Shown here: positions 1,209 through 17,119 of the stretch, piece after piece | Position numbering within the stretch: the first letter of the stretch is position 1 | How the letters are laid out: each line of letters starts with the position of its first letter | Source of the DNA: Fidelibacterota bacterium | GTDB taxonomy: Bacteria; Fidelibacterota; Marinisomatia; Marinisomatales; TCS56 | NCBI GenBank assembly: GCA_043822705.1 | Contig: JBDRBK010000164.1 | Coordinates: 1-17,991 of the forward strand | Length of the DNA stretch: 17,991 bases | Direction of reading: 5' to 3' | Translations under genes and position numbers: made by a program | Notes under the pieces: generated by a model | What the model was told of the DNA's origin: nothing | What the model saw: only the letters and a program-made list of their open reading frames with translations | The model's database searches: none

Positions 1209-3314
1209 CTACTTCATTCCCAACTGCCACATCAGAAAGGCCAGTTCATCGCTGCGGGTAGTGATTGATTTGCTGACCGGTGTGCCTTTGCTATGGCCGG
1301 CGCTGCGTTCGTAGCGCAACAGGATCGGCCGCTGGCCGGTGTTTTTCTTCTGCAGCAGGGCCGTCATTTTGCAGGCGTGCAGCGGATCGACCCGGGTATC
1401 AAATTCGCTGGTGGTGAACAGGGTGGCCGGATAGTCGCTGTGTGATTTCACGTTGTGGTAAGGCGAGTAGGCAAAGATGAACGGAAACTGCTGCGGGTTG
1501 TCGGCTGAGCCGAATTCGGGAATCCACAGACTGGCAATGGAAAATTTATGGTAACGGATCATATCCAGTAGCGGCACGCCGCAGACCGCTGCCTGCCACA
1601 GGTCCGGCCGTTGGGTGATGGCAACGCCCACTAACAGTCCGCCATTGCTGCCCCCGCGAATTGAAAGATGTTTCGAATCGGTATAGCCGTTGGCGATCAG
1701 CCATTCGCCGGCGGCGATGAAATCATCGTAACTGTTCTGTTTATTATCGAGTCGGGCCGATTCGTGCCACGCCCGGCCGTACTCGCCGCCGCCACGGATG
1801 TTAGCCAGCGCGAACACGCCGCCTTCCAGTATCCAGGGTACGGCAGTCTGACTGAAAACCGGCTTCTCGGAAATATCAAAACCGCCGTAACCATAGAGCA
1901 TGGTCGGATTATCGCCGGTCAGCTCCAGCGAATCATGATGGACGATAAACATCGGAATACTGGTGCCATCCCGGGAGGGATAAAAGATCTGGGTCATCGT
2001 CTGGTGACTGAGATCAATCCCGGGTTCCGGCCGGTGCAAAGTTTGCAATTTATCCGTGAACAGGTCGAAATGGAATATTGTCGGCGGATGGATAAACGAT
2101 TCGAAATCGAAAAACAGGTTATAAGAGCGCGGATCGCCATGGATATTTTTAATGCTGCCCATGACCGGCAACGGTATCTCCCACTTGCGTTTGCCGTCCA
2201 GTGAGTACATCCACAGATGCGATATCACATCCTTGCGAAAGGCCACGGCGATCTGGCCGTCGGCAATGGTGAAGGTCTCGAGGCGCTGGTTTGAGGCCGG
2301 GATGATTTCCTTCCAGTACTCCGGCCCCGGTGTGCCGACCGGCGCCGTCACCAGCCGGTACTGCGGGGCGTTCAGATCGGTCAACAGATAAATCCGGTCG
2401 TCGTAAACATCACCGGAAAAATACCCATCCAGACCCACCGCCACCGGCTGGATTTCCGCGTTCCGTTCCAGCCGCATCAAATACAGATCGTTGACAGTCC
2501 AATCCACGGATGAATAAATAAACAGGTATTCCCCATCGGAAGTCCCATAGGCGTCGACCCAGTCCTCGCGCCCCAGCTGGTCGCCAAAAATCAAGCAGTC
2601 GTTTTCCCAGGTCGTATCGGCCAGATCGTGGAAGAACAGGCGCCGGAAATAAAATTCATCGCCTTCTGCCACGGTTCCTGGTTCAGGATATCGGACGTAA
2701 TAAAAACCGCTCTCATCCGGCAACCAGACCACCGGGCTGGACCTGGTGTAAGGGATTACCAGGGCCAGATCGGCACCCTGATCCACATTTCTGACCATAA
2801 GCGTGCTGATTTCCGAACCACCGCGGGAAGCGCCGTAGGCCAGCAAGGCGCCGCTGGGTGACGGGTATTGCCAGTCCAGACCGGTTGTGCCGGCTTCGCT
2901 GAACTGATTCGGGTCCAGCGCTACCCGCTCCTTTCTCCCGGGGAAATCATCGCTGTAATATAGCGCTTTATGATTCTGTCCGGCGGCACGCTTGAAATAG
3001 AAATAACGTTGATCGTAAATCTGGGGCACTGTCATTACCGGCATATCATACAAGGCGCTGACGATTTTCTCGATCCGGCGGCGCTGCGGCAGACTGTCGA
3101 GCAAAAAGTGGGTAAAATCATCCTGGGCGGTGATCCAATCCTGTACTTCCGGATCACCGGAATTTTCCAGCCAGCGATAGTCATCGGAGATGCGCGTGCC
3201 ATGCAGCTCGTCAATTACGGTCTCTACCCGGGTCAACGGATAATTCCACTGAGCCTGGATAATCAACGGTACGACCACTGCGATGAAATATTTTACTGTT
3301 CTGCTTCCCGGCAC
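1209..3314 (-). CDS. Prolyl oligopeptidase (peptidase S9A), probably exported
   Basis: Motifs DDYRWLE, YGYGGF, ANIRGGGEYG, nucleophile GGSNGGLL, DTRV (Asp) and AGH (His). Start reassigned to GTG 3314, which lies 6 nt after AGGAGG and gives a signal-peptide-like MPGSRTVKYFIAVVVPLIIQA/QW (about 701 aa). Confidence 0.93.
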   Translation of the reverse strand: MPGSRTVKYFIAVVVPLIIQAQWNYPLTRVETVIDELHGTRISDDYRWLENSGDPEVQDWITAQDDFTHFLLDSLPQRRRIEKIVSALYDMPVMTVPQIYDQRYFYFKRAAGQNHKALYYSDDFPGRKERVALDPNQFSEAGTTGLDWQYPSPSGALLAYGASRGGSEISTLMVRNVDQGADLALVIPYTRSSPVVWLPDESGFYYVRYPEPGTVAEGDEFYFRRLFFHDLADTTWENDCLIFGDQLGREDWVDAYGTSDGEYLFIYSSVDWTVNDLYLMRLERNAEIQPVAVGLDGYFSGDVYDDRIYLLTDLNAPQYRLVTAPVGTPGPEYWKEIIPASNQRLETFTIADGQIAVAFRKDVISHLWMYSLDGKRKWEIPLPVMGSIKNIHGDPRSYNLFFDFESFIHPPTIFHFDLFTDKLQTLHRPEPGIDLSHQTMTQIFYPSRDGTSIPMFIVHHDSLELTGDNPTMLYGYGGFDISEKPVFSQTAVPWILEGGVFALANIRGGGEYGRAWHESARLDNKQNSYDDFIAAGEWLIANGYTDSKHLSIRGGSNGGLLVGVAITQRPDLWQAAVCGVPLLDMIRYHKFSIASLWIPEFGSADNPQQFPFIFAYSPYHNVKSHSDYPATLFTTSEFDTRVDPLHACKMTALLQKKNTGQRPILLRYERSAGHSKGTPVSKSITTRSDELAFLMWQLGMK

Positions 3315-3407
3315 GGAACTCCTCCTGACTTTGTGGTCAAATTTAGGCTGTTTTAGCGCCTTCAACCCGGACAAATTTAATTAGTTTTCCCGTCCGGTCT
3401 CTTTCCC

Positions 3408-3462
3408 TTGCTTGGTATACGAAACCACTTTTAAAATCAGGATAAGAAGGTCTTATTATAAT
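3408..3462 (+). promoter_or_regulatory. Candidate sigma70 promoter region for the group 3b hydrogenase operon
   Basis: TTGCTT(3408-3413)-N18-TAAAAT(3432-3437). There is also a perfect TATAAT at 3457-3462, directly preceded by the inverted repeat ATAAGA-agg-TCTTAT (3442-3456). Lies in the AT-rich divergent intergenic region. Confidence 0.35.
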
Positions 3463-3583: not shown

Positions 3584-4660
3584 ATGGTGCCAAACATGAA
3601 GAAATACAACCTATTGCTACAGAATATTCCTGATTTTGTCGCACATCTGAAATCGTTCGGTGAGGTATTTGCTCCGCATAAGAAGGGGGACAATTCATTC
3701 AGCTTCGATTCGGTCGCCGATCCTGGCGATGCGGTCCTGGATTACAATCGCACGCTACAGTCGATTCGTAAGTTTTTCCTGCCGCCCAGTGAACGGTTGC
3801 TGAATTATTCCCTGACGGACAATACCTATGAAAAAATTGCGATCGATAACGATCCCCGAATCTTTTTAGGCGTCCACAGTTACGATATGAAAGCAGTATT
3901 GAAACTGGACTACAATTTCAGTAATCGCACTCCGGAAATCAACTACCTGAAACGCCGCGAAAATTGCACTTTTATCGGTGTATCTTTCGAACCCGACGAG
4001 TTTCATTTCAGCCGCTCGGTGGGCATCACCGTGGAAGAAACCGAGGGCTTCGACCTTTTCCTCAACCGCCATGAGACCGGCTATGTCGTGCAGGTCCTGA
4101 CCGAACGTGGTGAAGAAATCATCAAAGGTTTCCCAAATCTGGGCGATGCAGCGGATTTGCCGCAGATTAACCGTCAGTTCAAGAATAAAATCAAATTCAA
4201 TTACAACCGCCTGCCGGAAGTGATGGAACAGGCCTGGAATTCACCGGTCTGGAGTGAAGTAGCCCAGCGTTGCGTCGGCTGCGGTACTTGCAATCTGGTC
4301 TGCCCGACCTGCTACTGCTTCAATGTCGTCGACGATATCGAACTGAGCCTGACAGCCGGTTCGCGGGAACGGCACTGGGACGGCTGTATGCTCAACAGTT
4401 TCGCCGCCGTTGCCGGTGGTGAGAACTTCCGTGGCAAGCTGGCCGATCGCCAGCGCCATCGCGTCTATCGCAAATTCAAGTATATCACCGATAAGACCGG
4501 CGACCCCTGGTGTGTCGGGTGCGGACGTTGTACGGCCTACTGCACCGCCGGCATCAGCATCGTGGAAATCGTAAATAAACTCAGCGACGAGTTCGAGCAT
4601 ATTCATCTGAGAAAATCATCGGCTGCGACCACACGGAATACGGAAGGGGTTTCATTATGA
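3584..4660 (+). CDS. hydB: Group 3b [NiFe]-hydrogenase beta subunit (4Fe-4S dicluster, AsrA/HydB-like)
   Basis: Ferredoxin motifs CVGCGTCNLVCPTCYCF and CVGCGRCTAYC, plus RERHWDGC and R-x-RHRVYRK, typical of the AsrA/HydB family. First gene of a beta-gamma-delta-alpha cluster. The start may be ATG 3596. Confidence 0.88.
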   Translation: MVPNMKKYNLLLQNIPDFVAHLKSFGEVFAPHKKGDNSFSFDSVADPGDAVLDYNRTLQSIRKFFLPPSERLLNYSLTDNTYEKIAIDNDPRIFLGVHSYDMKAVLKLDYNFSNRTPEINYLKRRENCTFIGVSFEPDEFHFSRSVGITVEETEGFDLFLNRHETGYVVQVLTERGEEIIKGFPNLGDAADLPQINRQFKNKIKFNYNRLPEVMEQAWNSPVWSEVAQRCVGCGTCNLVCPTCYCFNVVDDIELSLTAGSRERHWDGCMLNSFAAVAGGENFRGKLADRQRHRVYRKFKYITDKTGDPWCVGCGRCTAYCTAGISIVEIVNKLSDEFEHIHLRKSSAATTRNTEGVSL

Positions 4661-5505
4661 CAATGTTATCAAAATTGGAACAAAATCCCATGGAACTGTA
4701 CTATCCGGACATGGCGGAAATCACCGCCGTCAAACAGTACACCGAACTGGAAAAATGGTTTGAGATCAAATTGCCCGATGGCCGGGAATTGGGTCACCAA
4801 CCCGGTCAGTTTGCCCTGTTTTCCCTGTTCGGGATCGGCGAGGCGGCCATTTCGATCTGTTCGGCGCCCACCAAGAAAGGCGCCTTCGATATCTGTGTGC
4901 GCAAGGTCGGCATGCTGACCGAAAAGCTGCATCAGTTGGACGTCGGCCAGAAAATCGGCGTTCGCGGTCCGTTCGGCAATGGTTTCCCGGTGGAAGATTT
5001 CCAGGGCAAGGATATTCTGATTGTCGGCGGCGGCATCGGCATCGTGCCGCTGCGGTCACTGATCAACCACGTGATCGACAACCGTGCCGATTACGGCCGG
5101 CTGATCATCCTATATGGCGCCAAGAATCCCCATGAACTGCTGTTCCCCGAAGAACTGCAGAAATGGGCCGCCGATCCCACCATCGAATATCATGTTACCG
5201 TCGACAATGGCTCACCGGAATGGAAAGGCAATACCGGCGTTATCACTACCCTGATCCCCAAACTGGAGCTCGATCTGGATAACACCATCGCCGCCGTGGT
5301 CGGTCCCCCGGTCATGTACAAATTCGTATTGATGTCGCTCAAGACCAAACGCCTGCCGGAGGCGAACATTTACATGTCGCTGGAACGGCGGATGAAATGC
5401 GGCGTCGGCAAGTGCGGACACTGCCAGATCAACGATACTTACGTTTGCCTGGACGGTCCGGTGTACCATTATCCTGATATTAAAAATCTGCCGGAGGCGA
5501 TCTGA
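4657..5505 (+). CDS. hydG: Group 3b hydrogenase gamma subunit (FAD/NAD(P)-binding, 2Fe-2S; AsrB/HydG-like)
   Basis: Motifs PGQF, GVRGPFGNGF, GGGIG, GPPVM and ERRMKCGVGKCGHC...C. ATGA overlap with the upstream gene. Confidence 0.9.
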   Translation: MTMLSKLEQNPMELYYPDMAEITAVKQYTELEKWFEIKLPDGRELGHQPGQFALFSLFGIGEAAISICSAPTKKGAFDICVRKVGMLTEKLHQLDVGQKIGVRGPFGNGFPVEDFQGKDILIVGGGIGIVPLRSLINHVIDNRADYGRLIILYGAKNPHELLFPEELQKWAADPTIEYHVTVDNGSPEWKGNTGVITTLIPKLELDLDNTIAAVVGPPVMYKFVLMSLKTKRLPEANIYMSLERRMKCGVGKCGHCQINDTYVCLDGPVYHYPDIKNLPEAI

Positions 5506-6272
5506 TGACTACTCAGCCTGCACCGAAGACCAAGCCGAAAGTAGCGTTTTTCGATTTTACGAGCTGCGAAGGCTGCCAGTTGAGCAAACTGAATCTTGAG
5601 AATCACATTCTCGATCTGCTGGAACATATTGACATTGTGGAATTCCGTGAAGCCATGGATGATCGGGCCGAGGAATATGACATCGCCTTCATCGAAGGAT
5701 CGATCTCAACCCCCACCTGTGTCGAGCGTATTCATGACATCCGTCGGCGCACCAAGTTGCTGGTGGCGCTGGGCTCCTGTGCCTCGATCGGCGGTATTAA
5801 CGCCTTGAAAAACCTGCAACCGATCGAAAACGTCCGGGAAGCGGTTTATGGCAAGGATAAATACCTGTTCCCGACCCTGCCGGCCATGCCGGTATCGGCG
5901 ATAGTCAAGGTGGATTTTGAAATCCACGGCTGCCCGATGAGCATACCGGAATTCCTGACCGTGTTCAAGGCCCTGGCCCTGGGCAAACAACCGATCAAAC
6001 CCGATTCCCCGGTCTGCGTCGAATGCAAACTGCGGGAAAATGAATGCCTGTACGACCGCGGCATGGTCTGCCTGGGCCCGATCACCCGTAGCGGTTGCGA
6101 CGCCATTTGTCCCAGCTTCGGCCAGTTCTGCACCGGTTGCCGGGGACTGGTCCCCAATCCCAACAAGAACGCCATGCTGGATATCCTGACCAGCCATGGC
6201 CTGTCCTTGCAGGAAGCGGAGAAACGGCTGCTTTTATTCAACGCCTACAACAAACAGAACACGTTCAAGTAA
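5505..6272 (+). CDS. hydD: Group 3b hydrogenase small (delta) subunit
   Basis: Proximal-cluster motifs SCEGC, EGS, GSCASIGG and HGCP, plus a C-terminal Cys array (CVEC..C..CLGP..GC..CP..CTGCRG). No Tat signal, so cytoplasmic. TGATG overlap with the gamma gene. Confidence 0.92.
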   Translation: MTTQPAPKTKPKVAFFDFTSCEGCQLSKLNLENHILDLLEHIDIVEFREAMDDRAEEYDIAFIEGSISTPTCVERIHDIRRRTKLLVALGSCASIGGINALKNLQPIENVREAVYGKDKYLFPTLPAMPVSAIVKVDFEIHGCPMSIPEFLTVFKALALGKQPIKPDSPVCVECKLRENECLYDRGMVCLGPITRSGCDAICPSFGQFCTGCRGLVPNPNKNAMLDILTSHGLSLQEAEKRLLLFNAYNKQNTFK

Positions 6273-6286
6273 CGCAAGGATTAGTC

Positions 6287-7603
6287 ATGAGCAAAAATCT
6301 TGATATCAACGTACACCACCTGACCCGCGTCGAGGGACATGGCAATATCGTTGTCAACATGAAGGAAGGGCGGTTGGAAAAAGCCGAACTGCAGATCGTG
6401 GAGGCACCGCGTTATTTTGAGGCGATGCTGAAGGGCCGCAGTTTTCACGAAGCCGCCATCATAACCTCGCGCATTTGTGGTATCTGCTCGCTGGGCCACC
6501 AGCTTACATCGCTGAAAGCCACTGAAGACGCCCTGGGGCTGGAACTTTCGGAACAGACGATTCTGCTGCGGAAATTGCTGGTCCACGGCGCGACCCTGCA
6601 ATCCAATGTACTGCATGTTTATTTCCTGGTCGCCCCGGATCTGCTGAATGCCCCCAGCGTATTTCCATTGATTCCGACCCACACCGATGTCATCCTGCGG
6701 GCCCTGCGGATGAAACGACTGGCCAACGATATCGGCGATATCGTCAGCGGCCGCGCCGTTCACCCGATCACACCCGTTCCCGGCGGCTTCACGCGGATTC
6801 CGACCGTGGGCGAGCTGAAGGAAATCCGGCGACGCCTGATTGAGGAAGGCATCCCGGACATCGTCCAGACCGTCGAAACCGTGAAAGCGCTGGCCGGCGG
6901 GATCCCCGGTTTCGTGCGTGCGACCGAATACATATCGCTGAAGGATAAAAATGAATATGCCCTATACGAAGGCGATATTTATTCTTCCGATACCGGTTAT
7001 ACCGACGTCCATGATTACCGCAGTATTACCAACGAATTTGTGGTCGGTCATTCCACCAGCAAGCACACCAGGCACAATCGCAGCAGTTACATGGTCGGTG
7101 CCCTGGCCCGCTGGAATAACAACCGCGACCAGATGAGCGAAATGTCGCTGCAGGCCGCCGAAACGCTGGGTCTGACCCCGGATTGCTTCAATCCGTACAT
7201 GAACAGCGTCGCCCAGGTTGTGGAATGCGCCCACTGTGCCGAGGATGCGATCGCAATCATTGACCGGCTGCTGGAAATCGGCCTGAAGGACGAAAAACCC
7301 AATCAGACACCGACCAAGTATGGTATCGGTGCCGGCGCCACCGAGGTTCCCCGCGGTATTTTGTTCCATGAATATGAATACGACCGCAAGGGTGATATCG
7401 TGGCCGCCAACTGTATTATCCCGACCGGCCAGAATCTGGCCAATATCGATGATGACATGAAGAAGCTGGTACCGGAGATAATCGATAAATCCAAGGCGGA
7501 AATCACCAAGCACCTGGAAATGCTGGTTCGGGCATATGATCCTTGTATCTCTTGCTCGGTTCATTTATTGAACGTAGACTTCATCGATGACTCGGAAGGC
7601 TAA
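6287..7603 (+). CDS. hydA: Group 3b [NiFe]-hydrogenase large (alpha) subunit
   Basis: The true start is ATG 6287 (after AAGGA), giving MSKNLDINVHHLTRVEGHG. L1 motif RICGICSLGH, EVPRG, and L2 motif RAYDPCISCSVH followed by a 12-aa cleavable tail. 438 aa. Confidence 0.95.
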   Translation: MSKNLDINVHHLTRVEGHGNIVVNMKEGRLEKAELQIVEAPRYFEAMLKGRSFHEAAIITSRICGICSLGHQLTSLKATEDALGLELSEQTILLRKLLVHGATLQSNVLHVYFLVAPDLLNAPSVFPLIPTHTDVILRALRMKRLANDIGDIVSGRAVHPITPVPGGFTRIPTVGELKEIRRRLIEEGIPDIVQTVETVKALAGGIPGFVRATEYISLKDKNEYALYEGDIYSSDTGYTDVHDYRSITNEFVVGHSTSKHTRHNRSSYMVGALARWNNNRDQMSEMSLQAAETLGLTPDCFNPYMNSVAQVVECAHCAEDAIAIIDRLLEIGLKDEKPNQTPTKYGIGAGATEVPRGILFHEYEYDRKGDIVAANCIIPTGQNLANIDDDMKKLVPEIIDKSKAEITKHLEMLVRAYDPCISCSVHLLNVDFIDDSEG

Positions 7604-8093
7604 AACGGAAACGAACATTAAAACCGGTCCTACCGCGATGAAAATCATCGCAGTAGGCAACAGTCTGTATGGCGATGACGGTGTCGGCGAGGCGGTTCTG
7701 AACGCCCTGGCCGATATACCCGAAATGGAAGAGGTGGAACTGATTGACGGCGCCACCGACGCGCTGGGATTAATCGACTATTTCGCCGACACCGATCATG
7801 TCGTAATCATCGATGCCGCCAGCATGGACAAGGAACCGGGCACGGTTCAGGTATTCAATGCCGATCAGGCCAAGCTGAAAATCCGGGATGATCACTTATC
7901 GCTGCATGGAATCAGTCTGGCAGAGACATTCGAAGTCGCCCGCCTGGCTGAATCGATGCCCAACCGAATCACAATCATCGGGATCGAACCCCAGCACCTG
8001 ACGGTGGCCGCCGGTTTGAGTGAACCGGTCCGGCGGGCGGTACCACTGGCAGTTTCCAAAATCCTGGAATTACACCAATCATCAACAGTTTAA
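7587..8093 (+). CDS. Hydrogenase maturation endopeptidase (HycI/HoxW/HybD family) for the group 3b large subunit
   Basis: Metal-binding pattern GNSLYGDDGVG, IIDAA and SLH. Directly follows the large subunit. Alternative start ATG 7638. Confidence 0.9.
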   Translation: MTRKAKTETNIKTGPTAMKIIAVGNSLYGDDGVGEAVLNALADIPEMEEVELIDGATDALGLIDYFADTDHVVIIDAASMDKEPGTVQVFNADQAKLKIRDDHLSLHGISLAETFEVARLAESMPNRITIIGIEPQHLTVAAGLSEPVRRAVPLAVSKILELHQSSTV

Positions 8094-8105: not shown

Positions 8106-8495
8106 ATGTCAAAGAAAATTATGATTATCGACGATGATATCGATCTTGTCGAAGCGATGCGGATCACCCTGGAATCGGGTGGCTATGAAGTAATTGATGC
8201 GCAAGAGGGGGGTAAAGGTTTTGAGATGTTGAAAACCGAAAAACCCGACCTGTTGATCCTGGATGTAATGATGGGCACCCAGGACGAAGGTTTCCATCTG
8301 GCCTACCAGATCCGGAGCGACGAAGCCACCAAGGAGATTCCGATCGTGATGGTCACCGCCGTCGGCGCCCAGACCGGATTTGCATTCGACCCGGCCAAGG
8401 ATGAGAATTTCCTGCCGGTGGATGAATTCCTGGAAAAGCCGGTCAAGCCGCGAACACTGCTGGACACCGTCAAAAGGAATCTGCCGCTTGGCTAG
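8106..8495 (+). CDS. Stand-alone response regulator receiver (CheY-like, no output domain)
   Basis: Acidic pocket IIDDD, phosphoacceptor LDVMM, and the conserved VTA and KP motifs. Only 129 aa. Confidence 0.92.
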   Translation: MSKKIMIIDDDIDLVEAMRITLESGGYEVIDAQEGGKGFEMLKTEKPDLLILDVMMGTQDEGFHLAYQIRSDEATKEIPIVMVTAVGAQTGFAFDPAKDENFLPVDEFLEKPVKPRTLLDTVKRNLPLG

Positions 8496-9834
8496 TACCA
8501 CGCCGGAAAAAATTGCAGCAGACATAAAATACTCCTTTTACACCCCTGGTTCGCTTCGACGGAAAAATATCTGGCTGATTAAACTGCGCTGGATTTCCAT
8601 CGGCGCCGCCTTGGTTTACGCCCTTCTGGCTAAAAGCTTATTACCCGAGGTCATCCCCTTGGGTAATTTGTTTTGTGTTATCACCGCCCTGGCGGCCACT
8701 AATTTCCTCTACTTCCGATATACCAGCACCAGACCGCCGACCAGTTTAGGTCTGGAAGAACGACTTGTACTGTTACAAATCATACTGGACTTGATACTGC
8801 TAACATTTATAATTCATTATTCCGGCGGATTGGAAAACCCCTTCTATTTCTTTTACATATTTCATATCATCATTTCGGCTACGATTTTCGACGAGCCCAA
8901 ACAGCCCTTCATGATGGCCGGCGTGGCTGTGATATTGTTTTCATGCCTTGCGATATTGGAGTACACCGGCCTGGTGCATCATTACCAGATCAGCCAGAAC
9001 ACGTACACCCTGATCCATACATTACTAGCCCTGATGGGCTTTTATGTCACGATTTTTGTCAGTTCCTACATTGGCGTCACACTAATGAACCGCCATCGTA
9101 AGGTTAAAAATCTGATTTTCGCCCAGAATGAACAATTGGAAAAAGCCGCCGCCGAAAAAATGCAGTTTTTCCGCTTTGTATCCCATGAATTGAAATCGCC
9201 GATTGTGGCGGTGCAGAGTTCGATCAATGTCGTGCTGGATGTGGTCAATGCCGATATGCCACCTAAAGCCCGCGATATGCTGGATCGCGCCCGGATTCGC
9301 AGCAGCCAGATGTTGGATATTTTAAAGGATCTGGTTGACCTCAGTTACGACCGCCCTACTTCCGTCGACCAGAAAGAATTAGTAAATCCCTGTGATTATC
9401 TGAGCCAATTCATTGAAAACGAACGACCGCGGGCCGACGAGAAGAATATCCGTATTATCCAGGATATCTGTGCCAACCACGGCGATTTACGAGTCGACCG
9501 GTTCATTCTGGAAAAGATTTTTTCCAACCTGCTCTCCAATGCTATCCGGTATACACCCCCGGATGGGACAGTAACAATTTCAACTACTGTGAATAAAAAT
9601 TTCTGGTCGTTTGACATTACCGACACTGGAATCGGGATGACCAAAGTCGATCAGAAACGGGTATTCGAGGAATTTTACCGGGCGGATAACGCCAAGAAAT
9701 TCGCCTCGGTTGGAACCGGATTAGGGTTAAATATCGTAAAAAAACTGGTTGACCAATTGGGTGGAATAATTAAATTAAAAAGTAAATTGAACGAAGGGAC
9801 AACCGTTACCGTAAGGATACCGCTGCATGTATAA
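8488..9834 (+). CDS. Membrane-bound sensor histidine kinase with a RegB/PrrB-like 6-TM sensor domain
   Basis: Six hydrophobic segments, with LIKLRW and SGGLENPF motifs. H-box SHELKSP, N-box NLLSNAIRYT, G1 DTGIG, F-box FEEFYR, G2 GTGLGL. The start is probably TTG 8488 (AAGGA upstream, overlapping the receiver stop) rather than 8380. Confidence 0.9.
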   Translation: MASTTPEKIAADIKYSFYTPGSLRRKNIWLIKLRWISIGAALVYALLAKSLLPEVIPLGNLFCVITALAATNFLYFRYTSTRPPTSLGLEERLVLLQIILDLILLTFIIHYSGGLENPFYFFYIFHIIISATIFDEPKQPFMMAGVAVILFSCLAILEYTGLVHHYQISQNTYTLIHTLLALMGFYVTIFVSSYIGVTLMNRHRKVKNLIFAQNEQLEKAAAEKMQFFRFVSHELKSPIVAVQSSINVVLDVVNADMPPKARDMLDRARIRSSQMLDILKDLVDLSYDRPTSVDQKELVNPCDYLSQFIENERPRADEKNIRIIQDICANHGDLRVDRFILEKIFSNLLSNAIRYTPPDGTVTISTTVNKNFWSFDITDTGIGMTKVDQKRVFEEFYRADNAKKFASVGTGLGLNIVKKLVDQLGGIIKLKSKLNEGTTVTVRIPLHV

Positions 9835-10300
9835 AATTCCTGTTGGCGGAATATTGCAATTAAGAGGTCTGACCATGATGGAAGTTCTGGGATTGCCAAA
9901 CCGGCCGGGTTATGCCGGTAAAATTCTGACTTTGCTGGGAGATGCCGAAATAAACCTTCATTTCATCGCCGAGTGTGAAGACTCGCGTGGTCTGGCCAAT
10001 ATCGCCATCTGTATTGATCCCGAACGTGAACAGGAGGCAGCAAACATTATTCATCTGTATGAAAAAACCGATGATTCAGTGACAATCATAAGACGTCCGC
10101 ATGTATCGGTTATCACTGTATACGGCCCTCACTTTCGCGAGAAACCGGCGATTTGCGGCAATATGTGCGCCGCACTCGGGGAGAAAGATATTAATATTCT
10201 GGGCATATCCACGTCAATCTCGTCCGTTTGCAGTGTCGTGGCAGATCAGGATTTCGAACAAGCGTACGAAGGATTACTGACGGTTTTCAGCCTGCCCTGA
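9827..10300 (+). CDS. Stand-alone tandem ACT-domain protein (aspartokinase regulatory-domain-like)
   Basis: Two ACT-like repeats: GLPNRPGYAGKILTLLGDAEINLHFI and GPHFREKPAICGNMCAALGEKDINILGISTS. No kinase domain. Overlaps the histidine kinase stop by 8 nt. Confidence 0.82.
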   Translation: MYKIPVGGILQLRGLTMMEVLGLPNRPGYAGKILTLLGDAEINLHFIAECEDSRGLANIAICIDPEREQEAANIIHLYEKTDDSVTIIRRPHVSVITVYGPHFREKPAICGNMCAALGEKDINILGISTSISSVCSVVADQDFEQAYEGLLTVFSLP

Positions 10301-10376
10301 TCTGGTTTTTTTGGTAATTCCCGCCTTTTACGCCATCATTTTGGTTTTATGAGAGTTCGGTCCTGGATAATATTTC

Positions 10377-10405
10377 TTGTATTATTAGTCGGCATACTAT
10401 ATACT
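10377..10405 (+). promoter_or_regulatory. Sigma70-type promoter for marR (and probably the hyb operon)
   Basis: TTGTAT(10377-10382)-N17-TATACT(10400-10405). Confidence 0.65.
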
Positions 10406-10433
10406 TAACATACTTAATAGTTAAGTATGTTAA
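10405..10433. promoter_or_regulatory. Putative MarR operator (perfect 13-bp inverted repeat)
   Basis: TTAACATACTTAA-tag-TTAAGTATGTTAA. It abuts the -10 box and covers the predicted transcription start and the marR ATG. Each arm is a TTAA-N5-TTAA box. Confidence 0.75.
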
Positions 10434-11020
10434 CCAAACATCCGAAAATACCGCTCATATCCAGCAATATTCAGTTGTTCGCGGAAATAATGAATGATGT
10501 TTGCACTCAGATTTTTCTTCGTGATGTTTGCCCATCGTCTATATCCAAGACACAGTTGCATATTCTTAAAACATTATTTGTATCCGGTCAAAAATCCGCC
10601 AGTGACCTTTCCGAAATTATGCATATCAGTCGTCCAGCCATTACCCAGCAGGTGGATAAATTGACCAAATTATCGTTGATTGCGCGCCAAATTGATCCTA
10701 GTGATCGGCGGTCGATTAAAATTTCCTTAACTAACAATGGTCAGGAACTCATCGTTTCATACGAAGAGTATGTCCTGGCCCGCCATGCCAACATTCTCAA
10801 TTACTTTACATATGAGGAACGGACGGTTTTTAACCAGTGTCTTGAAAAATTCATCGATTTATGCCTTGACTGTGTTGACAATCTTGATATTCTATGCCTG
10901 AACTGCGAAGGACGCTATATGGAATTTTGCAAAATTAACGCGCATAAATATTATTGTCATCTTGATTACAAGCAACAGCAAAAGAAACAATCGGTTTCCA
11001 ATGCAACGAAAGACGATTAA
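10427..11020 (+). CDS. MarR-family transcriptional regulator with a Cys-rich C-terminal extension
   Basis: Winged-HTH signature SASDLSEIMHISRPAITQQVDKL...DPSDRRSIKISLTNNG. The tail has the pattern C-x7-C-x2-C-x7-C-x2-C-x7-C-x8-C-H. Confidence 0.9.
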   Translation: MLTKHPKIPLISSNIQLFAEIMNDVCTQIFLRDVCPSSISKTQLHILKTLFVSGQKSASDLSEIMHISRPAITQQVDKLTKLSLIARQIDPSDRRSIKISLTNNGQELIVSYEEYVLARHANILNYFTYEERTVFNQCLEKFIDLCLDCVDNLDILCLNCEGRYMEFCKINAHKYYCHLDYKQQQKKQSVSNATKDD

Positions 11021-11112: not shown

Positions 11113-12270
11113 ATGCCCAAGCGACACCCATCTGCTCCCGATTCTGATCTGGCACGATACCATTCCGCTGAATTGGAACTTTCCGGTGTCTCGCGTCGAG
11201 ACTTCGTCAAATTCTGCACCACCATGACGGCCGCCATGGGACTGCCTTTCAGTCTGGCCGCGCAGGTAGCCAAAACAATTACCGACCCAGCCCGCCTGCC
11301 GATTATCTGGTTGCATTTTCAGGAGTGCACAGGGTGCACTGAAACATTACTGCGGGCGACGCATCCCAAGGTCGAAGATCTGGTTCTGAACATGATTTCG
11401 CTGGATTATTCGGAAACACTGATGGTGGGTGCCGGTCACCAGGCCGAGGCCGCCCGCGATGCATCGATTGCCGCCAATAAGGGCAAATTCATCCTGGTTG
11501 TCGAAGGCTCAATCCCGATCAAGGATGGTGGCGTTTATTGTAAAGTCGGCGGACGCACTGCATTGGATATTGTTAAAGAAATCGCTCCCCAGGCCGCGGC
11601 GGCTGTGGCGATCGGTTCCTGTGCCTCCTGGGGCGGGGTCCAGTCTTCCGGCCCCAATCCGACCGGCGCCGTCGGTCTCCATGAAGTGATCTCGGATATC
11701 CCGATAATCAACATCCCCGGCTGCCCCGCCAGCCCCTATAATTTGCTATCGACTGTTCTATATTTTCTGACCCTGAAAAAGCTGCCGGAACTGGATAAGC
11801 TGGGCCGGCCCAAATTCGCTTATGGCCGACTGATTCATGAGCACTGTGAGCGTCGTCCGCATTTCGATGCGGGACGATTCGCCGGCCAGCTCGGCGATGA
11901 GAATCACCGCCAGGGATACTGTCTCTACAAACTGGGCTGCAAAGGGCCCGAAACTCATGCTAATTGTCCTTCTATTCATTTTGGCAATACCGGCAGTTGG
12001 CCGGTCGGTGGCGGTCACCCCTGTTTCGGCTGTACGGAAAAAGGAGTCGGTTTCACAAAACCAGCTTTTGAACAGGCCAGCGTGCTGTCGGTGACGCCAC
12101 CAGAGATTTTCCCCGGAATCGTCGATGATAAAAAAGGTGGAATCACCCCCGGTGCCGCTGCCGTAGCCGGCGTGCTGGCCGGTGCCGCCCTGGGCGCCGG
12201 AGCCATGATGACTAAAAACCTGAGCCAATCCGATCAGGATGCCGGAACCGGCGACAACCAGCGTGCTTAG
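11113..12270 (+). CDS. hybO: Hyb-type (hydrogenase-2-like) [NiFe]-hydrogenase small subunit
   Basis: SD AAGGAG and Tat motif SRRDFVK. Cluster motifs ECTGC, GSCASWGG, IPGCP, HEHC..CLYKLGCKGP and NCP..HPCFGC. C-terminal TM anchor. Confidence 0.95.
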   Translation: MPKRHPSAPDSDLARYHSAELELSGVSRRDFVKFCTTMTAAMGLPFSLAAQVAKTITDPARLPIIWLHFQECTGCTETLLRATHPKVEDLVLNMISLDYSETLMVGAGHQAEAARDASIAANKGKFILVVEGSIPIKDGGVYCKVGGRTALDIVKEIAPQAAAAVAIGSCASWGGVQSSGPNPTGAVGLHEVISDIPIINIPGCPASPYNLLSTVLYFLTLKKLPELDKLGRPKFAYGRLIHEHCERRPHFDAGRFAGQLGDENHRQGYCLYKLGCKGPETHANCPSIHFGNTGSWPVGGGHPCFGCTEKGVGFTKPAFEQASVLSVTPPEIFPGIVDDKKGGITPGAAAVAGVLAGAALGAGAMMTKNLSQSDQDAGTGDNQRA

Positions 12271-12279
12271 GAGGTATCC

Positions 12280-13275
12280 ATGAACATCGAACGTCGTGGA
12301 TTTTTCAAAGTATTGTCCGCCGGAGCACTGGCTGCCGGCAGCATGAGTACGGCTCTGGCGAGGACCGTAAAAACCCTGCCACCTAATGCCGTCGGTATTC
12401 TTTACGATGCCACCCTGTGCATCGGCTGCAAGGCCTGCGAGGCAGGATGCAAAAAGGCCAACAACATGCCGGCCGATCACTCTGACCTGGAAACCCAGGC
12501 CGGCGTTGGCCCGATCTGGGACTCCGGCACCGATCTAAATTCCAGGACACTGAACAAGATCAAAGCCTACCGGCATGGCAGCGGAACCATCAAAAACGCG
12601 GCCAATGACGGATACTCCTTCGTGAAACGAGCCTGTATGCATTGCATTGATCCGGATTGTGTGTCGGCCTGCCCGGTCAGCGCTCTAAATAAAGACGCCG
12701 ATACCGGGATCGTGACATACAATAAAAAGGCTTGTATCGGCTGCCGCTATTGTCAGGTGGCCTGTCCCTATAACATCCCCAAATTCGAATTCGACAAAGC
12801 CTTCCCGGAAATCGTTAAATGCGAAATGTGTTCGCATCTGCTGGCTGAAGGTGGTTTGCCCGGCTGCTGTCAGAGTTGCCCGACGGGTGCATCGCTGTTC
12901 GGACGAGTGGAGGACCTGCTGGATGAGGCCCGACGGCGACTGGCGCTGCAACCGGGCACAGACTATGCCTACCCGATCACCTCCCTGACCGGCGGCGAAA
13001 GTCAGGTACGCCCGGCGGCCCGCTACGTGGATTATATCTATGGCGAATATGAGTCCGGCGGAACGCAATACCTGCTGCTGTCAGCAGTGCCATTTGACAA
13101 GCTGGGCCTGCCGCAACTGCCCCGGGACGCTGCTGCGGTGGCTTCCGAAACGCTGCAACATACAATCTACAAGGGTCTGATCGCCCCGGTGGCACTGTTA
13201 GGCGGGCTGTTGTATACGGCTTACCGGTCCACCGCGACTCACCAGACAGCCACGGAAGGAGGCGATCATGAGTGA
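12280..13275 (+). CDS. hybA: HybA periplasmic 4x[4Fe-4S] electron-transfer subunit
   Basis: SD GGAGG and Tat motif ERRGFFK. Motifs CIGCKACEAGC, CMHCIDPDCVSACP, CIGCRYCQVACP, CEMC..CCQSCP, YGEYESGGTQ, and SETLQHTIYKG followed by a C-terminal TM helix. Confidence 0.94.
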   Translation: MNIERRGFFKVLSAGALAAGSMSTALARTVKTLPPNAVGILYDATLCIGCKACEAGCKKANNMPADHSDLETQAGVGPIWDSGTDLNSRTLNKIKAYRHGSGTIKNAANDGYSFVKRACMHCIDPDCVSACPVSALNKDADTGIVTYNKKACIGCRYCQVACPYNIPKFEFDKAFPEIVKCEMCSHLLAEGGLPGCCQSCPTGASLFGRVEDLLDEARRRLALQPGTDYAYPITSLTGGESQVRPAARYVDYIYGEYESGGTQYLLLSAVPFDKLGLPQLPRDAAAVASETLQHTIYKGLIAPVALLGGLLYTAYRSTATHQTATEGGDHE

Positions 13276-14404
13276 ATATAAACCGGTCGGCGGGAAACTG
13301 CTGACCAAGCCCTTCCTGTTTCTCCTGGGGCTGGCAGTGATTGCCGGCTTCATCCTGATTCGCCGCTTCCTGTTCGGGCTGGGCGCCGTGACCAACCTGT
13401 CGGACGGATATCCCTGGGGCCTGTGGATCGTCTATGATGTACTGACCGGTACCGCGATCGCCTGCGGCGGTTACGCCATGGCCCTGGTAGTCTATGTGTT
13501 TAACCGCGGCCACTACCATCCGCTGATACGACCGGCAATCATGACCAGCATGTTCGGGTATACACTGGCGGCGGCATCGATCGTGATCGACGTGGGCCGC
13601 TACTGGCAACTCTATAACGTGTTCCTGCCCTGGCATGTCAACCTGAATTCGATCATGTTCGAAATCGCCTTCTGCGTCGCCAGCTATGTGGTCGTTCTGT
13701 GGATCGAGTTCTCCCCCACCTTCCTGGAAAAGTGGCGGCTGGCGCGGGGACAGAAAATCGCCGACCGCATCCTGTTCGTGTTCATCGCCCTGGGTGTACT
13801 GCTACCGACGATGCACCAATCATCGCTGGGAACACTGATGATCATCGCCGGGGACAAGCTGTCGCCGCTGTGGCAATCGAGTTGGCTGCCGGTGACCTAC
13901 CTGATATCGGCCATCGCCATGGGCTATGGGATGGTGATCCTGGAATCGCTGTTTGCTTCGGTGGGACTCAAACGTCCGCTGGAAACCGGGATACTGACCC
14001 GCCTGGCGCGCTTCATGCCGGCCCTGCTGGGGCTGTACCTGTTCATCCGTTACTGCGATCTGATCAGCCGCGGCGCCTTGGGTCTGGCTTTTGCCGGCGA
14101 CTTCCGTAGTTTCATGTTTCTGCTGGAAACGCTGCTGTTCGCCTTCCCGGTGATATTCCTGTCGATACCAAAATACCGGACACGAAATTCCTGGTTGCTG
14201 CTGACCGGGATTGCGATTGTCCTGGCCGGCGCCCTGTATCGTTTCAATGCCTATGTGATCGGCTTCGACCCCGGTCCGGGTTGGCATTATTTCCCATCGG
14301 TGGGAGAATTGCTGGTAACCGTCGGAATCATCGCGGTGGAGATTATGGCATACCTGATATTCGTGAAACGACTGCCGGTACTGCCCAAACTGGAACACGC
14401 CTAA
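13268..14404 (+). CDS. hybB: HybB NrfD/PsrC-family integral membrane quinone-reactive subunit
   Basis: Motifs GLGAVTNLSDGYPWGLWI, DVGRYW and LPTMHQSSLG. About 10 TM segments. SD GAAGGAGG. Confidence 0.93.
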   Translation: MSEYKPVGGKLLTKPFLFLLGLAVIAGFILIRRFLFGLGAVTNLSDGYPWGLWIVYDVLTGTAIACGGYAMALVVYVFNRGHYHPLIRPAIMTSMFGYTLAAASIVIDVGRYWQLYNVFLPWHVNLNSIMFEIAFCVASYVVVLWIEFSPTFLEKWRLARGQKIADRILFVFIALGVLLPTMHQSSLGTLMIIAGDKLSPLWQSSWLPVTYLISAIAMGYGMVILESLFASVGLKRPLETGILTRLARFMPALLGLYLFIRYCDLISRGALGLAFAGDFRSFMFLLETLLFAFPVIFLSIPKYRTRNSWLLLTGIAIVLAGALYRFNAYVIGFDPGPGWHYFPSVGELLVTVGIIAVEIMAYLIFVKRLPVLPKLEHA

Positions 14405-14426
14405 CTTTAATCAGGAGAAAATTTTT

Positions 14427-16127
14427 ATGGCTAGAACAATTACCGTTGACCCGGTGACACGCATCGAGGGTCATCTGCGCATTGATTGTGATATTGACAA
14501 TGGTCACGTGACAAAAGCCTGGGCCTCCGGGCAAATGTGGCGGGGAATCGAAACTATCCTGCAGGGCCGCGATCCCCGGGACGCCTGGTTATACACGCAA
14601 CGTTTCTGTGGCGTCTGCACCACCGTTCATGCGATCGCTTCGGTGCGGGCGGTGGAGAATGCCCTGGATTTGGAAATCCCGGTCAATGCCCAGTATATCC
14701 GTAACATGATCATCGCCGCCCACGGCATCCACGATCATATCGTCCATTTCTACCACCTGTCAGCCCTGGATTGGGTCGACGTGGTTTCGGCCCTGTCGGC
14801 CGACCCGGTGGCCGCCTCCAAACTGGCCCAGAGCCTCTCGCCCTGGCCCAACAACGGCGTGCAGGAATTCAAGACGGTACAGGCCAAATTGACCGGTTTC
14901 GTCCAATCCGGGCAACTGGGCATTTTCGCCAACGGCTACTGGGGTCATCCGGCCATGAAGCTGCCACCGGAAGTGAACCTGATCGCGGCAGCCCATTATC
15001 TGGAGGCCTTCGAATACCAGCGCAAAGCCAACCAGATCGTATCGATCCTGGGCAACAAGACGCCCCATATTCAGAACCTGGCGGTGGGCGGCGTTTCCAA
15101 CGCCATCAATCCCGATAATCAGGCCGCCATCAATATGGAACGGCTGGCTTACGTCAAGACGCTGATGGACGAGGTGGAAAGCTTCGTCCGCAACGTCTAT
15201 CTGGTGGATCTGGCGGCCGTCGGCGCGCTCTATGCGGAATGGCTGCCCTATGGCGCCGGTGTCACGAATTACCTGAGCGTCCCAGACTTCCCCATGGATC
15301 GGAAAGGCACCCAATTCGGCACGCCCGGCGGTTACATTCCGGCGGCCGATATCGCTAAATTCCGCGCCATCACCAGTTTTAACGATTCCTATTTCGAAGA
15401 TAATGTCAAGGAAAGCATCAAACATGCCTGGTACCAGGGCGACTGGAACCGCCACCCCTACAAGGAAGACACCCTGCCCAACTACACCGACTTCAACCGG
15501 GATGGAAAATATTCCTGGGTGAAAGCGCCCAGTTTCCTGGATCAGCCGGCTCAAGTTGGTCCGCTGGCCAACGTGCTGGGGATGTACGCCGCCGGTCACA
15601 AACCGACCCAGACCTACGCCAACCTGGCATTGGAGAAGATCAGCGCCATCGCCAAGACCCAGGTGGGTCTGGGCGCCCTGCACTCCACCCTCGGCCGCCA
15701 TGCCGCCCGCTGCATCCGCGCCAACGTACTCTACGACGTGCTTCAGGATAACTATAATGCCCTGGTCGCCAGTATCGCCAGCGGCGATGTCGAGACTTTC
15801 AATCCGCCGGTATTTCCGAAAGGTGAAATAACCGGTTTCGGCTTCCACGAGGCGCCCCGCGGGACCCTGTCGCACTGGGTGGTGATCGAAAACGGCAAGA
15901 TTAAAAATTACCAGGCGGTGGTCCCCTCCACCTGGAACGCCGGTCCGCGTAACCAGGACGATCTGGCCGGCCCCTACGAGGCTTCCCTGGTAGGCAATCC
16001 GATCGCCGATCCGGAACAGCCCCTGGAGGTGCTGCGGACGATCCATTCCTTCGATCCCTGCCTGGCCTGCGCCATTCACCTCCATAATAACGGCCGGGAA
16101 AACAGCGTACGTGTCAGTACCTGGTAA
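14427..16127 (+). CDS. hybC: Hyb-type [NiFe]-hydrogenase large subunit
   Basis: DPVTRIEGHLRI, L1 motif QRFCGVCTTVH, HFYHLSALDW, EAPRG, VVPSTWN, and L2 motif HSFDPCLACAIH followed by a 15-aa tail. SD AGGAG. Confidence 0.96.
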   Translation: MARTITVDPVTRIEGHLRIDCDIDNGHVTKAWASGQMWRGIETILQGRDPRDAWLYTQRFCGVCTTVHAIASVRAVENALDLEIPVNAQYIRNMIIAAHGIHDHIVHFYHLSALDWVDVVSALSADPVAASKLAQSLSPWPNNGVQEFKTVQAKLTGFVQSGQLGIFANGYWGHPAMKLPPEVNLIAAAHYLEAFEYQRKANQIVSILGNKTPHIQNLAVGGVSNAINPDNQAAINMERLAYVKTLMDEVESFVRNVYLVDLAAVGALYAEWLPYGAGVTNYLSVPDFPMDRKGTQFGTPGGYIPAADIAKFRAITSFNDSYFEDNVKESIKHAWYQGDWNRHPYKEDTLPNYTDFNRDGKYSWVKAPSFLDQPAQVGPLANVLGMYAAGHKPTQTYANLALEKISAIAKTQVGLGALHSTLGRHAARCIRANVLYDVLQDNYNALVASIASGDVETFNPPVFPKGEITGFGFHEAPRGTLSHWVVIENGKIKNYQAVVPSTWNAGPRNQDDLAGPYEASLVGNPIADPEQPLEVLRTIHSFDPCLACAIHLHNNGRENSVRVSTW

Positions 16128-16650
16128 CCAGCCGGCCGCAATCCTCGTCCTGGGGCTGGGTAACATCCTGCTCCAGGACGAGGGCGTGGGGGTGCGGGCC
16201 GTCGCTAGTCTGAGTAATAATTTCCGGTTTCGTCCGCAGATAGATATTGTCGACGGCGGCACCGCCGGACTGGACCTGCTGCCGGAATTCGACGACCGGG
16301 AAAAAATACTGATTGTCGACGCCGTGGAATTCAACCAGCCGCCGGGCTACATCGGCCTGATTGAAAATGATGCTATCCTGGTGCGAATCCAGACCAAGCT
16401 ATCAATCCATCACCTGGGACTGGCGGACGTGCTCAGCGCCGCCAAGATGCTGGATAAAATGCCGGCGGAAATCGTGCTGGTGGGCGTTCAGCCGGGTGGG
16501 GTGAATCCGGTCTTGGAATTGACGCCGGCCGTGGATAAAATCATGCCACGCGTTCTGGAAGCGATACTGACCCGGCTGCAACAGTGGGGCGTCGCTGCGG
16601 AACGGACGGCAGCGGAAAAGCGAGCGGGGGTATTCAATCTTTTTGATTAA
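16111..16650 (+). CDS. hybD: Hydrogenase maturation protease HyaD/HybD
   Basis: Motifs LGLGNILLQDEGVG, DGGT, IVDAV and SIHHLG. Overlaps the end of hybC. Confidence 0.92.
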   Translation: MSVPGNQPAAILVLGLGNILLQDEGVGVRAVASLSNNFRFRPQIDIVDGGTAGLDLLPEFDDREKILIVDAVEFNQPPGYIGLIENDAILVRIQTKLSIHHLGLADVLSAAKMLDKMPAEIVLVGVQPGGVNPVLELTPAVDKIMPRVLEAILTRLQQWGVAAERTAAEKRAGVFNLFD

Positions 16651-16702: not shown

Positions 16703-17119
16703 GTGATGAGTATAATTAAAAAAATCTGCGGTATGCCGATGGAACATAAGCTGGCTGTGTTTCTGTGGCTGGTCATGCTCCATTCGTTGACGGTGGGCAT
16801 CGGACTGATCACTTCACCGGCCTGGCTGCTGCAACGCTTCGGCTTCGCCTTCGATCCCGCCCGTTTCTTCGTCACTCAGGGCGGCGTATTCCACCTGGTA
16901 ATGACCCTGTGCTACGGTCTGGCGGCTCACGATCAACACCGGTTCGAAGGCCTGGTGATATTATCCATCGCCGCCAAATCAATCGCCACCGTGTTCCTGT
17001 TGATATATTATCTGGCGGTGGTGCCACTGCCGGTCGTGCTGCTGTCGGCTCTGGCCGACTTCCTGATGGGACTGGTAATCTTCCTGTTGCACCGTAGTAG
17101 CCGGTCAGGAAATCGATGA
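16703..17119 (+). CDS. Small 4-TM membrane protein of unknown function
   Basis: Four hydrophobic segments and an ATGA overlap with the next gene. The start is uncertain (16703, 16733 or 16739). Confidence 0.72.
   Translation: MMSIIKKICGMPMEHKLAVFLWLVMLHSLTVGIGLITSPAWLLQRFGFAFDPARFFVTQGGVFHLVMTLCYGLAAHDQHRFEGLVILSIAAKSIATVFLLIYYLAVVPLPVVLLSALADFLMGLVIFLLHRSSRSGNR

Follow-up and report, generated by a model that had tools for sequence, protein, structure and literature searches.

The window analysed here is the whole of contig JBDRBK010000164.1 (GCA_043822705.1), 17,991 nucleotides (nt) from a Fidelibacterota bacterium, in which four regulatory genes lie between two different [NiFe]-hydrogenase operons. 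They encode a single-domain receiver, a membrane histidine kinase, a stand-alone tandem-ACT protein and a Cys-rich MarR regulator, and an earlier reading made from the letters alone (the sequence-only reading) had proposed that all four form one redox-sensing circuit balancing the two enzymes. We found that the receiver, kinase and ACT genes (the trio) recur together near hydrogenase genes, and that the MarR gene mostly stands apart from them. Our preferred reading, to which we give about even credence, is of two joined units: the trio acting on the upstream group 3b-type hydrogenase, and a separate MarR acting on the downstream hyb genes.

Two hydrogenase operons and the genes between them

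Named homologs assign the window to Marinisomatota/Marinimicrobia. Pfam and NCBIfam searches were carried out on the proteins of the window. The genes and promoter features under discussion are as follows:

3438 to 3455, no strand assigned: imperfect palindrome of the AGGAYA-N4-TRTCCT type, in the 3b promoter between sigma70-like -35 and -10 elements
3584 to 4660, + strand: beta subunit of the group 3b-type NAD(P)-linked [NiFe]-hydrogenase
4657 to 5505, + strand: gamma subunit of the same enzyme
5505 to 6272, + strand: delta subunit of the same enzyme
6287 to 7603, + strand: alpha subunit of the same enzyme
7587 to 8093, + strand: hydrogenase maturation protease (HycI / TIGR00072, above cut-off)
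8106 to 8495, + strand: single-domain receiver, 129 amino acids (aa), with Response_reg as its sole domain
8488 to 9834, + strand: membrane histidine kinase (6TM_PilS + HisKA + HATPase_c)
9827 to 10300, + strand: stand-alone tandem-ACT protein of aspartokinase-beta fold
10405 to 10433, no strand assigned: perfect inverted repeat with 13-bp arms and a 3-nt spacer, over the MarR start codon
10427 to 11020, + strand: MarR regulator (Pfam MarR) with a C-terminal CxxC-x7-C-x8-C tail
11113 to 16650, + strand: Hyb-type periplasm-facing [NiFe]-hydrogenase (hybO, hybA, hybB, hybC) and its protease

All four open reading frames of the sequence-only reading are present, with the 3b-type operon upstream (3584 to 8093) and HybO-A-B-C downstream (11113 to 16650). 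Judged by gene order and motifs, the upstream enzyme is of group 3b type: its genes run beta-gamma-delta-alpha, it has an FAD/NAD(P) subunit and it carries the Ni motifs RICGIC and DPCISCSVH. Sulfhydrogenase models of Pfam and NCBIfam match its subunits, all under the equivalog cut-offs. In the downstream operon HybA and HybB score above the NCBIfam cut-offs, the best matches of HybO and HybC lie below cut-off, and a Tat motif is present.

The trio runs on from the 3b operon, as had been proposed. The receiver gene follows the protease gene after 12 nt, and the receiver/kinase and kinase/ACT overlaps are each 8 nt, given a kinase start that we place at the TTG at 8488, behind an AAAAGGA element. 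The MarR gene comes after a gap of 126 nt and ends 92 nt before hybO. The order 3b-protease-receiver-kinase-ACT was found again in relatives, so the arrangement is not a product of chance. The content of guanine plus cytosine (GC) is 39-48% over the kinase, ACT and MarR genes (8500 to 11000) against ~55% in the hydrogenase genes; horizontal insertion of low-GC regulatory genes is not favoured, because the gene order is kept across the phylum.

Receiver, kinase and ACT protein as a conserved set

A set of 401 genomes of the phylum was searched for the ACT protein by profile and for the kinase by its membrane-plus-His region. ACT was found in 89 genomes and the kinase in 93, with both in 84; the genomes are related and non-independent, and such counts overstate the support. 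Among genomes with a 3b large subunit of this clade, at 64% identity or more, 62/63 had ACT, and it was found in 0/13 genomes with more distant homologs (36-50%). A receiver orthologue was present in 4/5 re-tested ACT-positive genomes and was not found in one. Over 107 distinct ACT proteins, the gene directly 5' of ACT was the trio kinase in 70, the receiver in 16 and another gene in 16, with a contig end in the other 5. Pairwise identities at 32 loci intercorrelated at Spearman 0.78-0.83 among members of the trio (the kinase-receiver divergence correlation was 0.83), compared with 0.60-0.68 with the hydrogenase subunits, a descriptive comparison since the pairs are non-independent. The earlier suggestion of a hydrogenase-linked set without a DNA-binding domain therefore holds for receiver, kinase and ACT, none of which carries one, and we have high confidence that these three form one system.

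A second main layout runs hypothetical genes-receiver-ACT-(PAS/HisKA_3 kinase-NarL)-group 4 hydrogenase, the hydrogenase having AsrA/AsrB-like subunits. A kinase-less version of the trio (3b-receiver-ACT) was considered and rejected, the kinase being located elsewhere in all five genomes tested. In 5/5 genomes with a kinase-less ACT locus the six-helix kinase closes a group 4 operon, right after its protease, and in loci long enough to show it this operon begins with AsrA/AsrB-like genes. Five more genomes of family f28 hold the receiver, kinase and ACT together with a group 4 hydrogenase, the genes lying far apart in some of them. The feature common to both hydrogenase types appears to be an AsrA/B-type flavin/NAD(P) module. 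Led by AsrA/AsrB-like genes (where loci reach), ended by the six-helix kinase and including Mrp-type subunits, the group 4 operon (L143-L147, L209, L210) encodes a candidate NAD(P)H-linked ion-pumping membrane hydrogenase.

Neighbourhoods beyond Marinisomatota were taken from metagenome contigs (the best 80 of 181), in which Chloroflexota- and Desulfobacterota-type branches are barely sampled. ACT homologs outside the phylum are labelled Calditrichaeota, Caldithrix abyssi, KSB1 and Melioribacteraceae, and these match metagenome loci with kinase-ACT or the whole operon; atlas look-alikes are mostly Chloroflexota, which is a lead only. At two high-GC loci (L096, L114) receiver-ACT stands beside a maturation protease or a molybdopterin oxidoreductase, and some members of that branch have Asp for the invariant ACT His.

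Phosphorylation and the predicted receiver-ACT complex

Kinase and receiver have the features of a canonical His-Asp pair, the H-box, the ATP-binding domain and the D/T/K residues of the receiver all being intact. The kinase comprises 6TM_PilS, HisKA and HATPase_c domains (five segments over threshold in a hydropathy scan), and its phospho-His, H233 in HELKSP, is kept in 58/58 homologs. The receiver's phosphorylation residues D9/D10, D53, T84 and K111 are intact; across 20 receivers D53 and K111 are invariant and T84 nearly so. The kinase quite probably phosphorylates the receiver, as the 8-nt gene overlap and the correlated divergence (0.83) indirectly suggest. The mean pairwise identity of the receiver is 0.685 over 32 loci, with D13, V15, E16 and R19 of helix 1 invariant and an extended conserved segment from T84 to P104. 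D13/E16/R19 are kept in 64/64 ACT-associated receivers and E16/R19 altered in all five paralogous receivers inspected; the T84-P104 region is common to the paralogues.

The sequence-only reading had called the kinase RegB-like, a description that was borne out in part. According to the available text of PMC3000548, R31, Q38, N110 and F112 are conserved in RegB, Cys265 is redox-active and a GGxxNPF loop is universal among RegB homologs. With the RegB/RegA systems (PrrB/PrrA, ActS/ActR), as described there, the kinase shares a membrane-only sensor and a helix-1 Arg. In the window protein the loop matches exactly (GGLENPF, residues 113-119), while across its homologs it varies. R34, N117 and F119 correspond to RegB R31, N110 and F112, and R34 is kept in 57/58 kinase homologs. 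The remaining RegB features are missing or variable: Ala (A41) stands at the Q38 position (R+7), where Gln occurs in 0/56 homologs with the R-W motif, and no Cys was found within 55 residues after the phospho-His, as an equivalent of Cys265, in any parsed homolog. In the 58 homologs, loop position 117 is occupied by N (35) or S (23) and position 119 by F (39), L (13), V (4) or I (2). The NCBIfam model for RegB/PrrB/ActS, NF033792, scores 93.2 bits against a cut-off of 350. The partner differs too, being a receiver without a DNA-binding domain, plus the ACT protein. The kinase may operate like RegB but falls outside that family. Other membrane positions are invariant as well (W29, N72, D101, G113), which hints at a conserved pocket. 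Our best guess at the input, a tentative one, is quinone redox. A Cys pair at the start of the catalytic domain, C302 and C328, occurs complete in 34/37 close homologs and 0/21 distant ones, and is a possible clade-specific thiol switch with no relation to RegB Cys265.

The ACT protein was modelled with a predicted local distance difference test (pLDDT) score of 94, and its best Foldseek matches were aspartokinase beta subunits, with a template modelling (TM) score of 0.84 to 3AB2 and a range of 0.82-0.88. It shares the tandem-ACT fold of the beta subunits of C. glutamicum (2DTJ/3AB2) and T. thermophilus (2DT9/2ZHO), as well as the pattern N/D25, P27, G28, A30 (D/N-x-PG-x-A), E49, N123 and I124, which we take to be the first ligand site of aspartokinases. 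In those enzymes the first ACT site binds Thr, and the beta subunit has Thr or Lys as its ligand and is normally encoded with, and partners, the aspartokinase catalytic chain. The protein described here differs in having its own gene in a signalling operon, a receiver as its predicted partner and an altered second site, where GAGM has become an invariant YGPHF and STSEI/TSEI has become STSISS/SISS with S130 and S132 invariant. In C. glutamicum aspartokinase, changes at A279 and Q298 are described as deregulating the enzyme (PMC10464499, in its available part). No AA_kinase domain was found by Pfam in the ACT protein or elsewhere in the window.

A complex of two ACT copies and one receiver, both supplied as alignments, was modelled alongside three controls. 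It scored 0.61, and the best of the controls 0.01; the 0.61 level was reached by 116/157 solved and 2/215 mismatched pairs, a calibration that is only rough for this complex. The runs share at least 84% of contacts and the partner pLDDT is at least 76. Both ACT copies contact the receiver through residues 7-10, 99-101, 130-133 and 157, and one copy through H102 as well. The receiver residues contacted (11-19, 29-33, 55, 85 and 111-114) correspond to helix 1 and the edge around the phosphorylation site. Contact residues conserved at 90% or above number 11/16 in ACT (31/157 overall) and 13/19 in the receiver (57/129 overall), and the conserved ACT contacts include the motif that departs from aspartokinases. 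Two points count against reading much into this agreement: the folding model used the same alignments as the conservation count, and helix-1 conservation fails to single out ACT because helix 1 is also the surface on which kinases dock. The ACT profile matches 15 PDB sequences, every one of them named as an aspartokinase, and it is therefore unlikely that the model recalls a solved receiver-ACT pair. From the modelled complex we consider it likely that ACT binds the receiver. Since the kinase and ACT would be rivals for a single receiver surface, ACT would best be read as a gate on phosphorylation.

The protein could instead be an unattached regulatory subunit of aspartokinase, or a general buffer of ligand carried along in the operon, with the modelled contact an artefact of pairing conserved patches. 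The structural matches agree with this, true aspartokinases are the next profile matches after the ACT family, and many sources label the family 'aspartokinase'. However, the host's aspartokinase carries its own ACT domains on a separate contig (C121), invariant GPHF and SISS replace GAGM and TSEI, the trio kinase (70) or the receiver (16) lies directly upstream in 86/107 loci, and the three complex-model controls score 0.01 or less. Taken with these points the explanation is highly unlikely. Long proteins matching the ACT profile were looked at as fusion clues and rejected, as they proved to be ordinary aspartokinases. A 350-aa protein (P0424) has two tandem-ACT repeats, a GPHFGDR variant of the motif and no kinase domain.

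Other separate proteins are known to gate two-component phosphorylation in response to a second signal: CheZ, CheX/CheC, Rap, Spo0E and PmrD bind receivers, and PII acts on NtrB. To our knowledge none of them uses an aspartokinase-type ACT dimer or is linked to hydrogenases. As modelled, the trio would be a two-component system with an auxiliary receiver-binding protein. The locus is made of three genes and a separate fourth, not of a set of four.

Transcriptional regulators and the output of the trio

The MarR assignment is firm (PF01047, 55.5 bits against a cut-off of 24.6), and MarR structures head the fold search. Of its nine Cys residues, C157, C160, C168 and C177 are invariant in 8/8 aligned homologs. 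Loci of the four-Cys MarR were compared in the best 30 of 45 matches, a sample biased toward the window's kin; 29/30 have the CxxC-x7-C-x8/9-C tail and the remaining one is cut by the contig end. The tail is unstructured in the cofactor-free model (pLDDT <50), and solved MarRs, aligned over ~130-150 residues, do not match it. We infer that the tail binds a metal or an Fe-S cluster.

That MarR heads the hyb operon, as first proposed, agrees with these loci: in 23 of the 30 MarR leads into a group 1 small subunit gene and in 6 into a HybA/HybB-like pair, and the last lies at a contig edge. In the six with the pair (L156, L163, L165, L166, L168, L169) no hydrogenase small subunit adjoins. MarR begins a new unit, since the perfect 13-bp inverted repeat lies over its start within the 126-nt gap; no Shine-Dalgarno sequence was found before its ATG. 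An exact TTAA-N3-TTAA core near the MarR start was found in 18/30 loci (shuffle mean 0.7, max 4), the core having first been read from 8 of these 30. A palindrome at its own promoter, as is usual in the MarR family, is thus present as a sequence pattern, and the repeat at 10405 to 10433 is likely to be an auto-operator. By analogy, MarR would likely repress marR-hyb, with relief through the Cys tail.

We have equally high confidence that MarR is separate from the trio, which parts the proposed four-gene cassette. For the four proteins to balance the cytoplasmic and periplasmic hydrogenases jointly, the receiver or ACT might for example control MarR. MarR does follow ACT on the same strand in 9/30 of the best loci, in three families, where it heads a Hyb-type or cytochrome-b-type operon, and 25 of the 39 genomes (out of 401) that match the four-Cys MarR profile also have ACT. 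Yet 64/89 ACT genomes gave no MarR match and 14/39 MarR genomes no ACT match, MarR is provided with a separate operator and accompanies group 1 or HybAB-like operons, and close relatives have unrelated genes after the trio (L029, L030, L043). A neighbourhood comparison of the kind the sequence-only reading had called for thus recovers receiver-kinase-ACT near hydrogenases and finds MarR mostly elsewhere, and we regard a joint circuit of all four as very improbable.

The 3b operon has a promoter element of its own. The palindrome AGGAYA-N4-TRTCCT, within three mismatches, was found in 24/37 3b promoters (shuffle mean 5.8, max 12), the 37 from which its consensus was derived. In an independent set it was found in 17/30 Rrf2 promoters (shuffle mean 3.5, max 9), and it also precedes an Rrf2 gene in the window's own genome. 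A genome-wide scan gave 71 matches above the score used, most of the top 14 inspected lying inside genes; only the 3b and Rrf2 sites were used. The site at 3438 to 3455 is likely an operator for an Rrf2-family regulator encoded elsewhere. The Rrf2 of the window's genome that the palindrome precedes (C99:37955-38422; L177:1456-1920) has a tail of three Cys plus a His and is followed by a Usp-like gene (read from sequence) and a second Rrf2. It was found in 60/121 genomes of the order, far more widely than the trio, which fits independent control. The palindrome being common to the 3b operons and Rrf2 genes, DNA-binding control exists outside the trio. Taken to mean that the locus lacks DNA-binding regulators, the earlier statement therefore goes too far: it holds for the trio, but MarR belongs to this class and an Rrf2-associated palindrome lies in the 3b promoter. 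For both hydrogenase operons, a Cys-containing protein outside the trio is a candidate transcription factor.

The trio might still be the input of a transcriptional relay, in which the kinase acts, directly or via the receiver, on some DNA-binding regulator with a gene outside the locus (a sigma54 activator, a NarL-type regulator or Rrf2), with the receiver as a phosphate sink or shuttle that ACT tunes. HoxJ/HoxA, a sensory hydrogenase system with a DNA-binding activator, offers a precedent (PMC10073562, available text). Sigma54-type boxes precede 9/37 3b operons (shuffle mean 0.07), all distant from the window, which implies a DNA-binding activator there. A PAS-HisKA_3 kinase directly follows ACT in 22/107 loci, with a NarL-type regulator after it in those scanned, and in some loci ACT stays with these genes while the receiver is elsewhere. 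One genome has an NtrC-type activator after ACT. Upstream of a different 3b clade, whose large subunit terminates right at DPCISCSVH, lie genes for a kinase, a regulator of sigma54 type, a tandem receiver and a receiver-kinase (L218:2044-11706, read from sequence). In contrast, a pattern scan of the same 37 operons found no sigma54 box at the window's 3b promoter, and no DNA-binding response regulator is labelled beside ACT in 3b-type loci, that one genome excepted. The abundance of Rrf2 fits independent control, and the receiver is conserved far above the need of a plain sink. We rate such a relay as unlikely, though not negligible. ACT with the PAS-HisKA_3 kinase and NarL also occurs away from hydrogenase genes in the stretch fetched, with lexA adjoining in several (L072, L073, L077, L083, L104, L109, L123, L134).

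The two-unit reading, which we prefer, leaves the trio to act on protein. No effector domain was found in the receiver or ACT, and from gene context the receiver's output is probably the hydrogenase itself. It is possible, though we lean slightly against it, that its T84-P104 surface contacts the flavin/NAD(P)H module. A paralogous stand-alone receiver lies directly 5' of a fused NuoE/F-type gene and an [FeFe]-hydrogenase at 4/4 loci fetched (L211-L214), with no kinase labelled nearby (two of the four were scanned), and a related tandem receiver sits 5' of another 3b clade; this context favours action on the enzyme. Against the two-unit reading stand the sigma54 boxes and NarL-type genes described above, the weakness of the link from receiver to hydrogenase, drawn as it is from gene context, and the variability of the quinone motif, with an exact NPF in 21/58 homologs. 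In addition, the kinase is retained without receiver and ACT in at least four genomes, and therefore has other targets: four genomes of family f30 (77-96% complete) keep it and gave neither an ACT nor a receiver orthologue, and a fifth genome checked (87% complete) likewise gave neither. The paired absence of ACT and receiver in the four counts in favour of a link between these two.

In the mechanism we propose, the membrane kinase would read a membrane signal and phosphorylate the receiver, whose kinase-docking face an ACT dimer would clamp. An amino acid or similar small molecule would occupy the retained first ACT site, the second site having been turned into a receiver-binding patch, and this ligand would gate phosphorylation or dephosphorylation. 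The target of the phosphorylated receiver would be the hydrogenase protein, not DNA. From the palindrome at its start, MarR would repress both its own gene and the hyb operon. A more specific version, which we think rather improbable, is that an aspartokinase-beta fold was recruited as a ligand-gated gate or phosphatase and that the receiver directly switches the NAD(P)H module of the [NiFe]-hydrogenase. There the ACT dimer would lie over the mouth of the receiver active site and place its invariant His there (Asp in the Chloroflexota-type branch). If so, membrane redox and amino-acid supply would set hydrogenase activity post-translationally across several phyla, and MarR and Rrf2 would determine the amount of enzyme.

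Known regulators provide partial likenesses. HoxJ/HoxA (HupT/HupR), in the available text of PMC10073562, are likewise two-component proteins dedicated to hydrogenase genes. The trio differs in having a membrane-bound kinase, no sensory hydrogenase, no sigma54 activator and a receiver without an output domain; the hydrogenases on either side carry NAD(P) or membrane modules, and the output may be post-translational. SurR of Thermococcales and RsrR are described, in the portions available, as transcription factors that depend on Cys and control hydrogenase or NAD(P)H genes (PMC12162507, PMC5015018). With other Rrf2 proteins and thiol- or metal-sensing MarRs they are functional precedents for Cys-dependent transcriptional control, although SurR has its CxxC in an N-terminal winged helix-turn-helix domain and the MarR described here a C-terminal four-Cys tail. 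The hydrogenase regulators compared (HoxJ/HoxA, SurR) act on transcription, whereas a conserved trio free of DNA-binding domains that accompanies NAD(P)-linked hydrogenases of both group 3b and group 4 points to control at the protein level. The available text of PMC5317091 describes the Caldithrix 3b enzyme and names no such regulators. In that of PMC12727194, kinases and receivers are listed among the genes often found beside hydrogenases, and neither 'ACT domain' nor 'MarR' is matched. A literature search that was light on subscription journals and did not extend to supplements found no published description of the trio, which is conserved and apparently undescribed in print.

If the binding is real, a receiver-binding ACT dimer would be a new class of two-component auxiliary protein. 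It would also assign a function to a large protein family now annotated in databases as 'aspartokinase' (1593 members at E <=1e-25, which may include true aspartokinase subunits). Receiver and ACT are small and soluble and their contact residues are named, making the binding claim cheap to test; Caldithrix abyssi, a label carried by some ACT homologs, is a cultured species with a group 3b enzyme (PMC5317091, available part) and a possible host. The four-Cys MarR and the Rrf2-type palindrome add two testable transcriptional inputs in an uncultured phylum.

Upstream of the 3b operon the window holds the C-terminal part of a malic enzyme (38 to 961) and a prolyl oligopeptidase (1209 to 3374), a neighbourhood conserved in the family. 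The hyb protease is followed by a conserved gene for a small membrane protein (16703 to 17119), without a Pfam or NCBIfam match, and this is usually succeeded by a protein of ~500 aa with a GASGFVG nucleotide-binding start.

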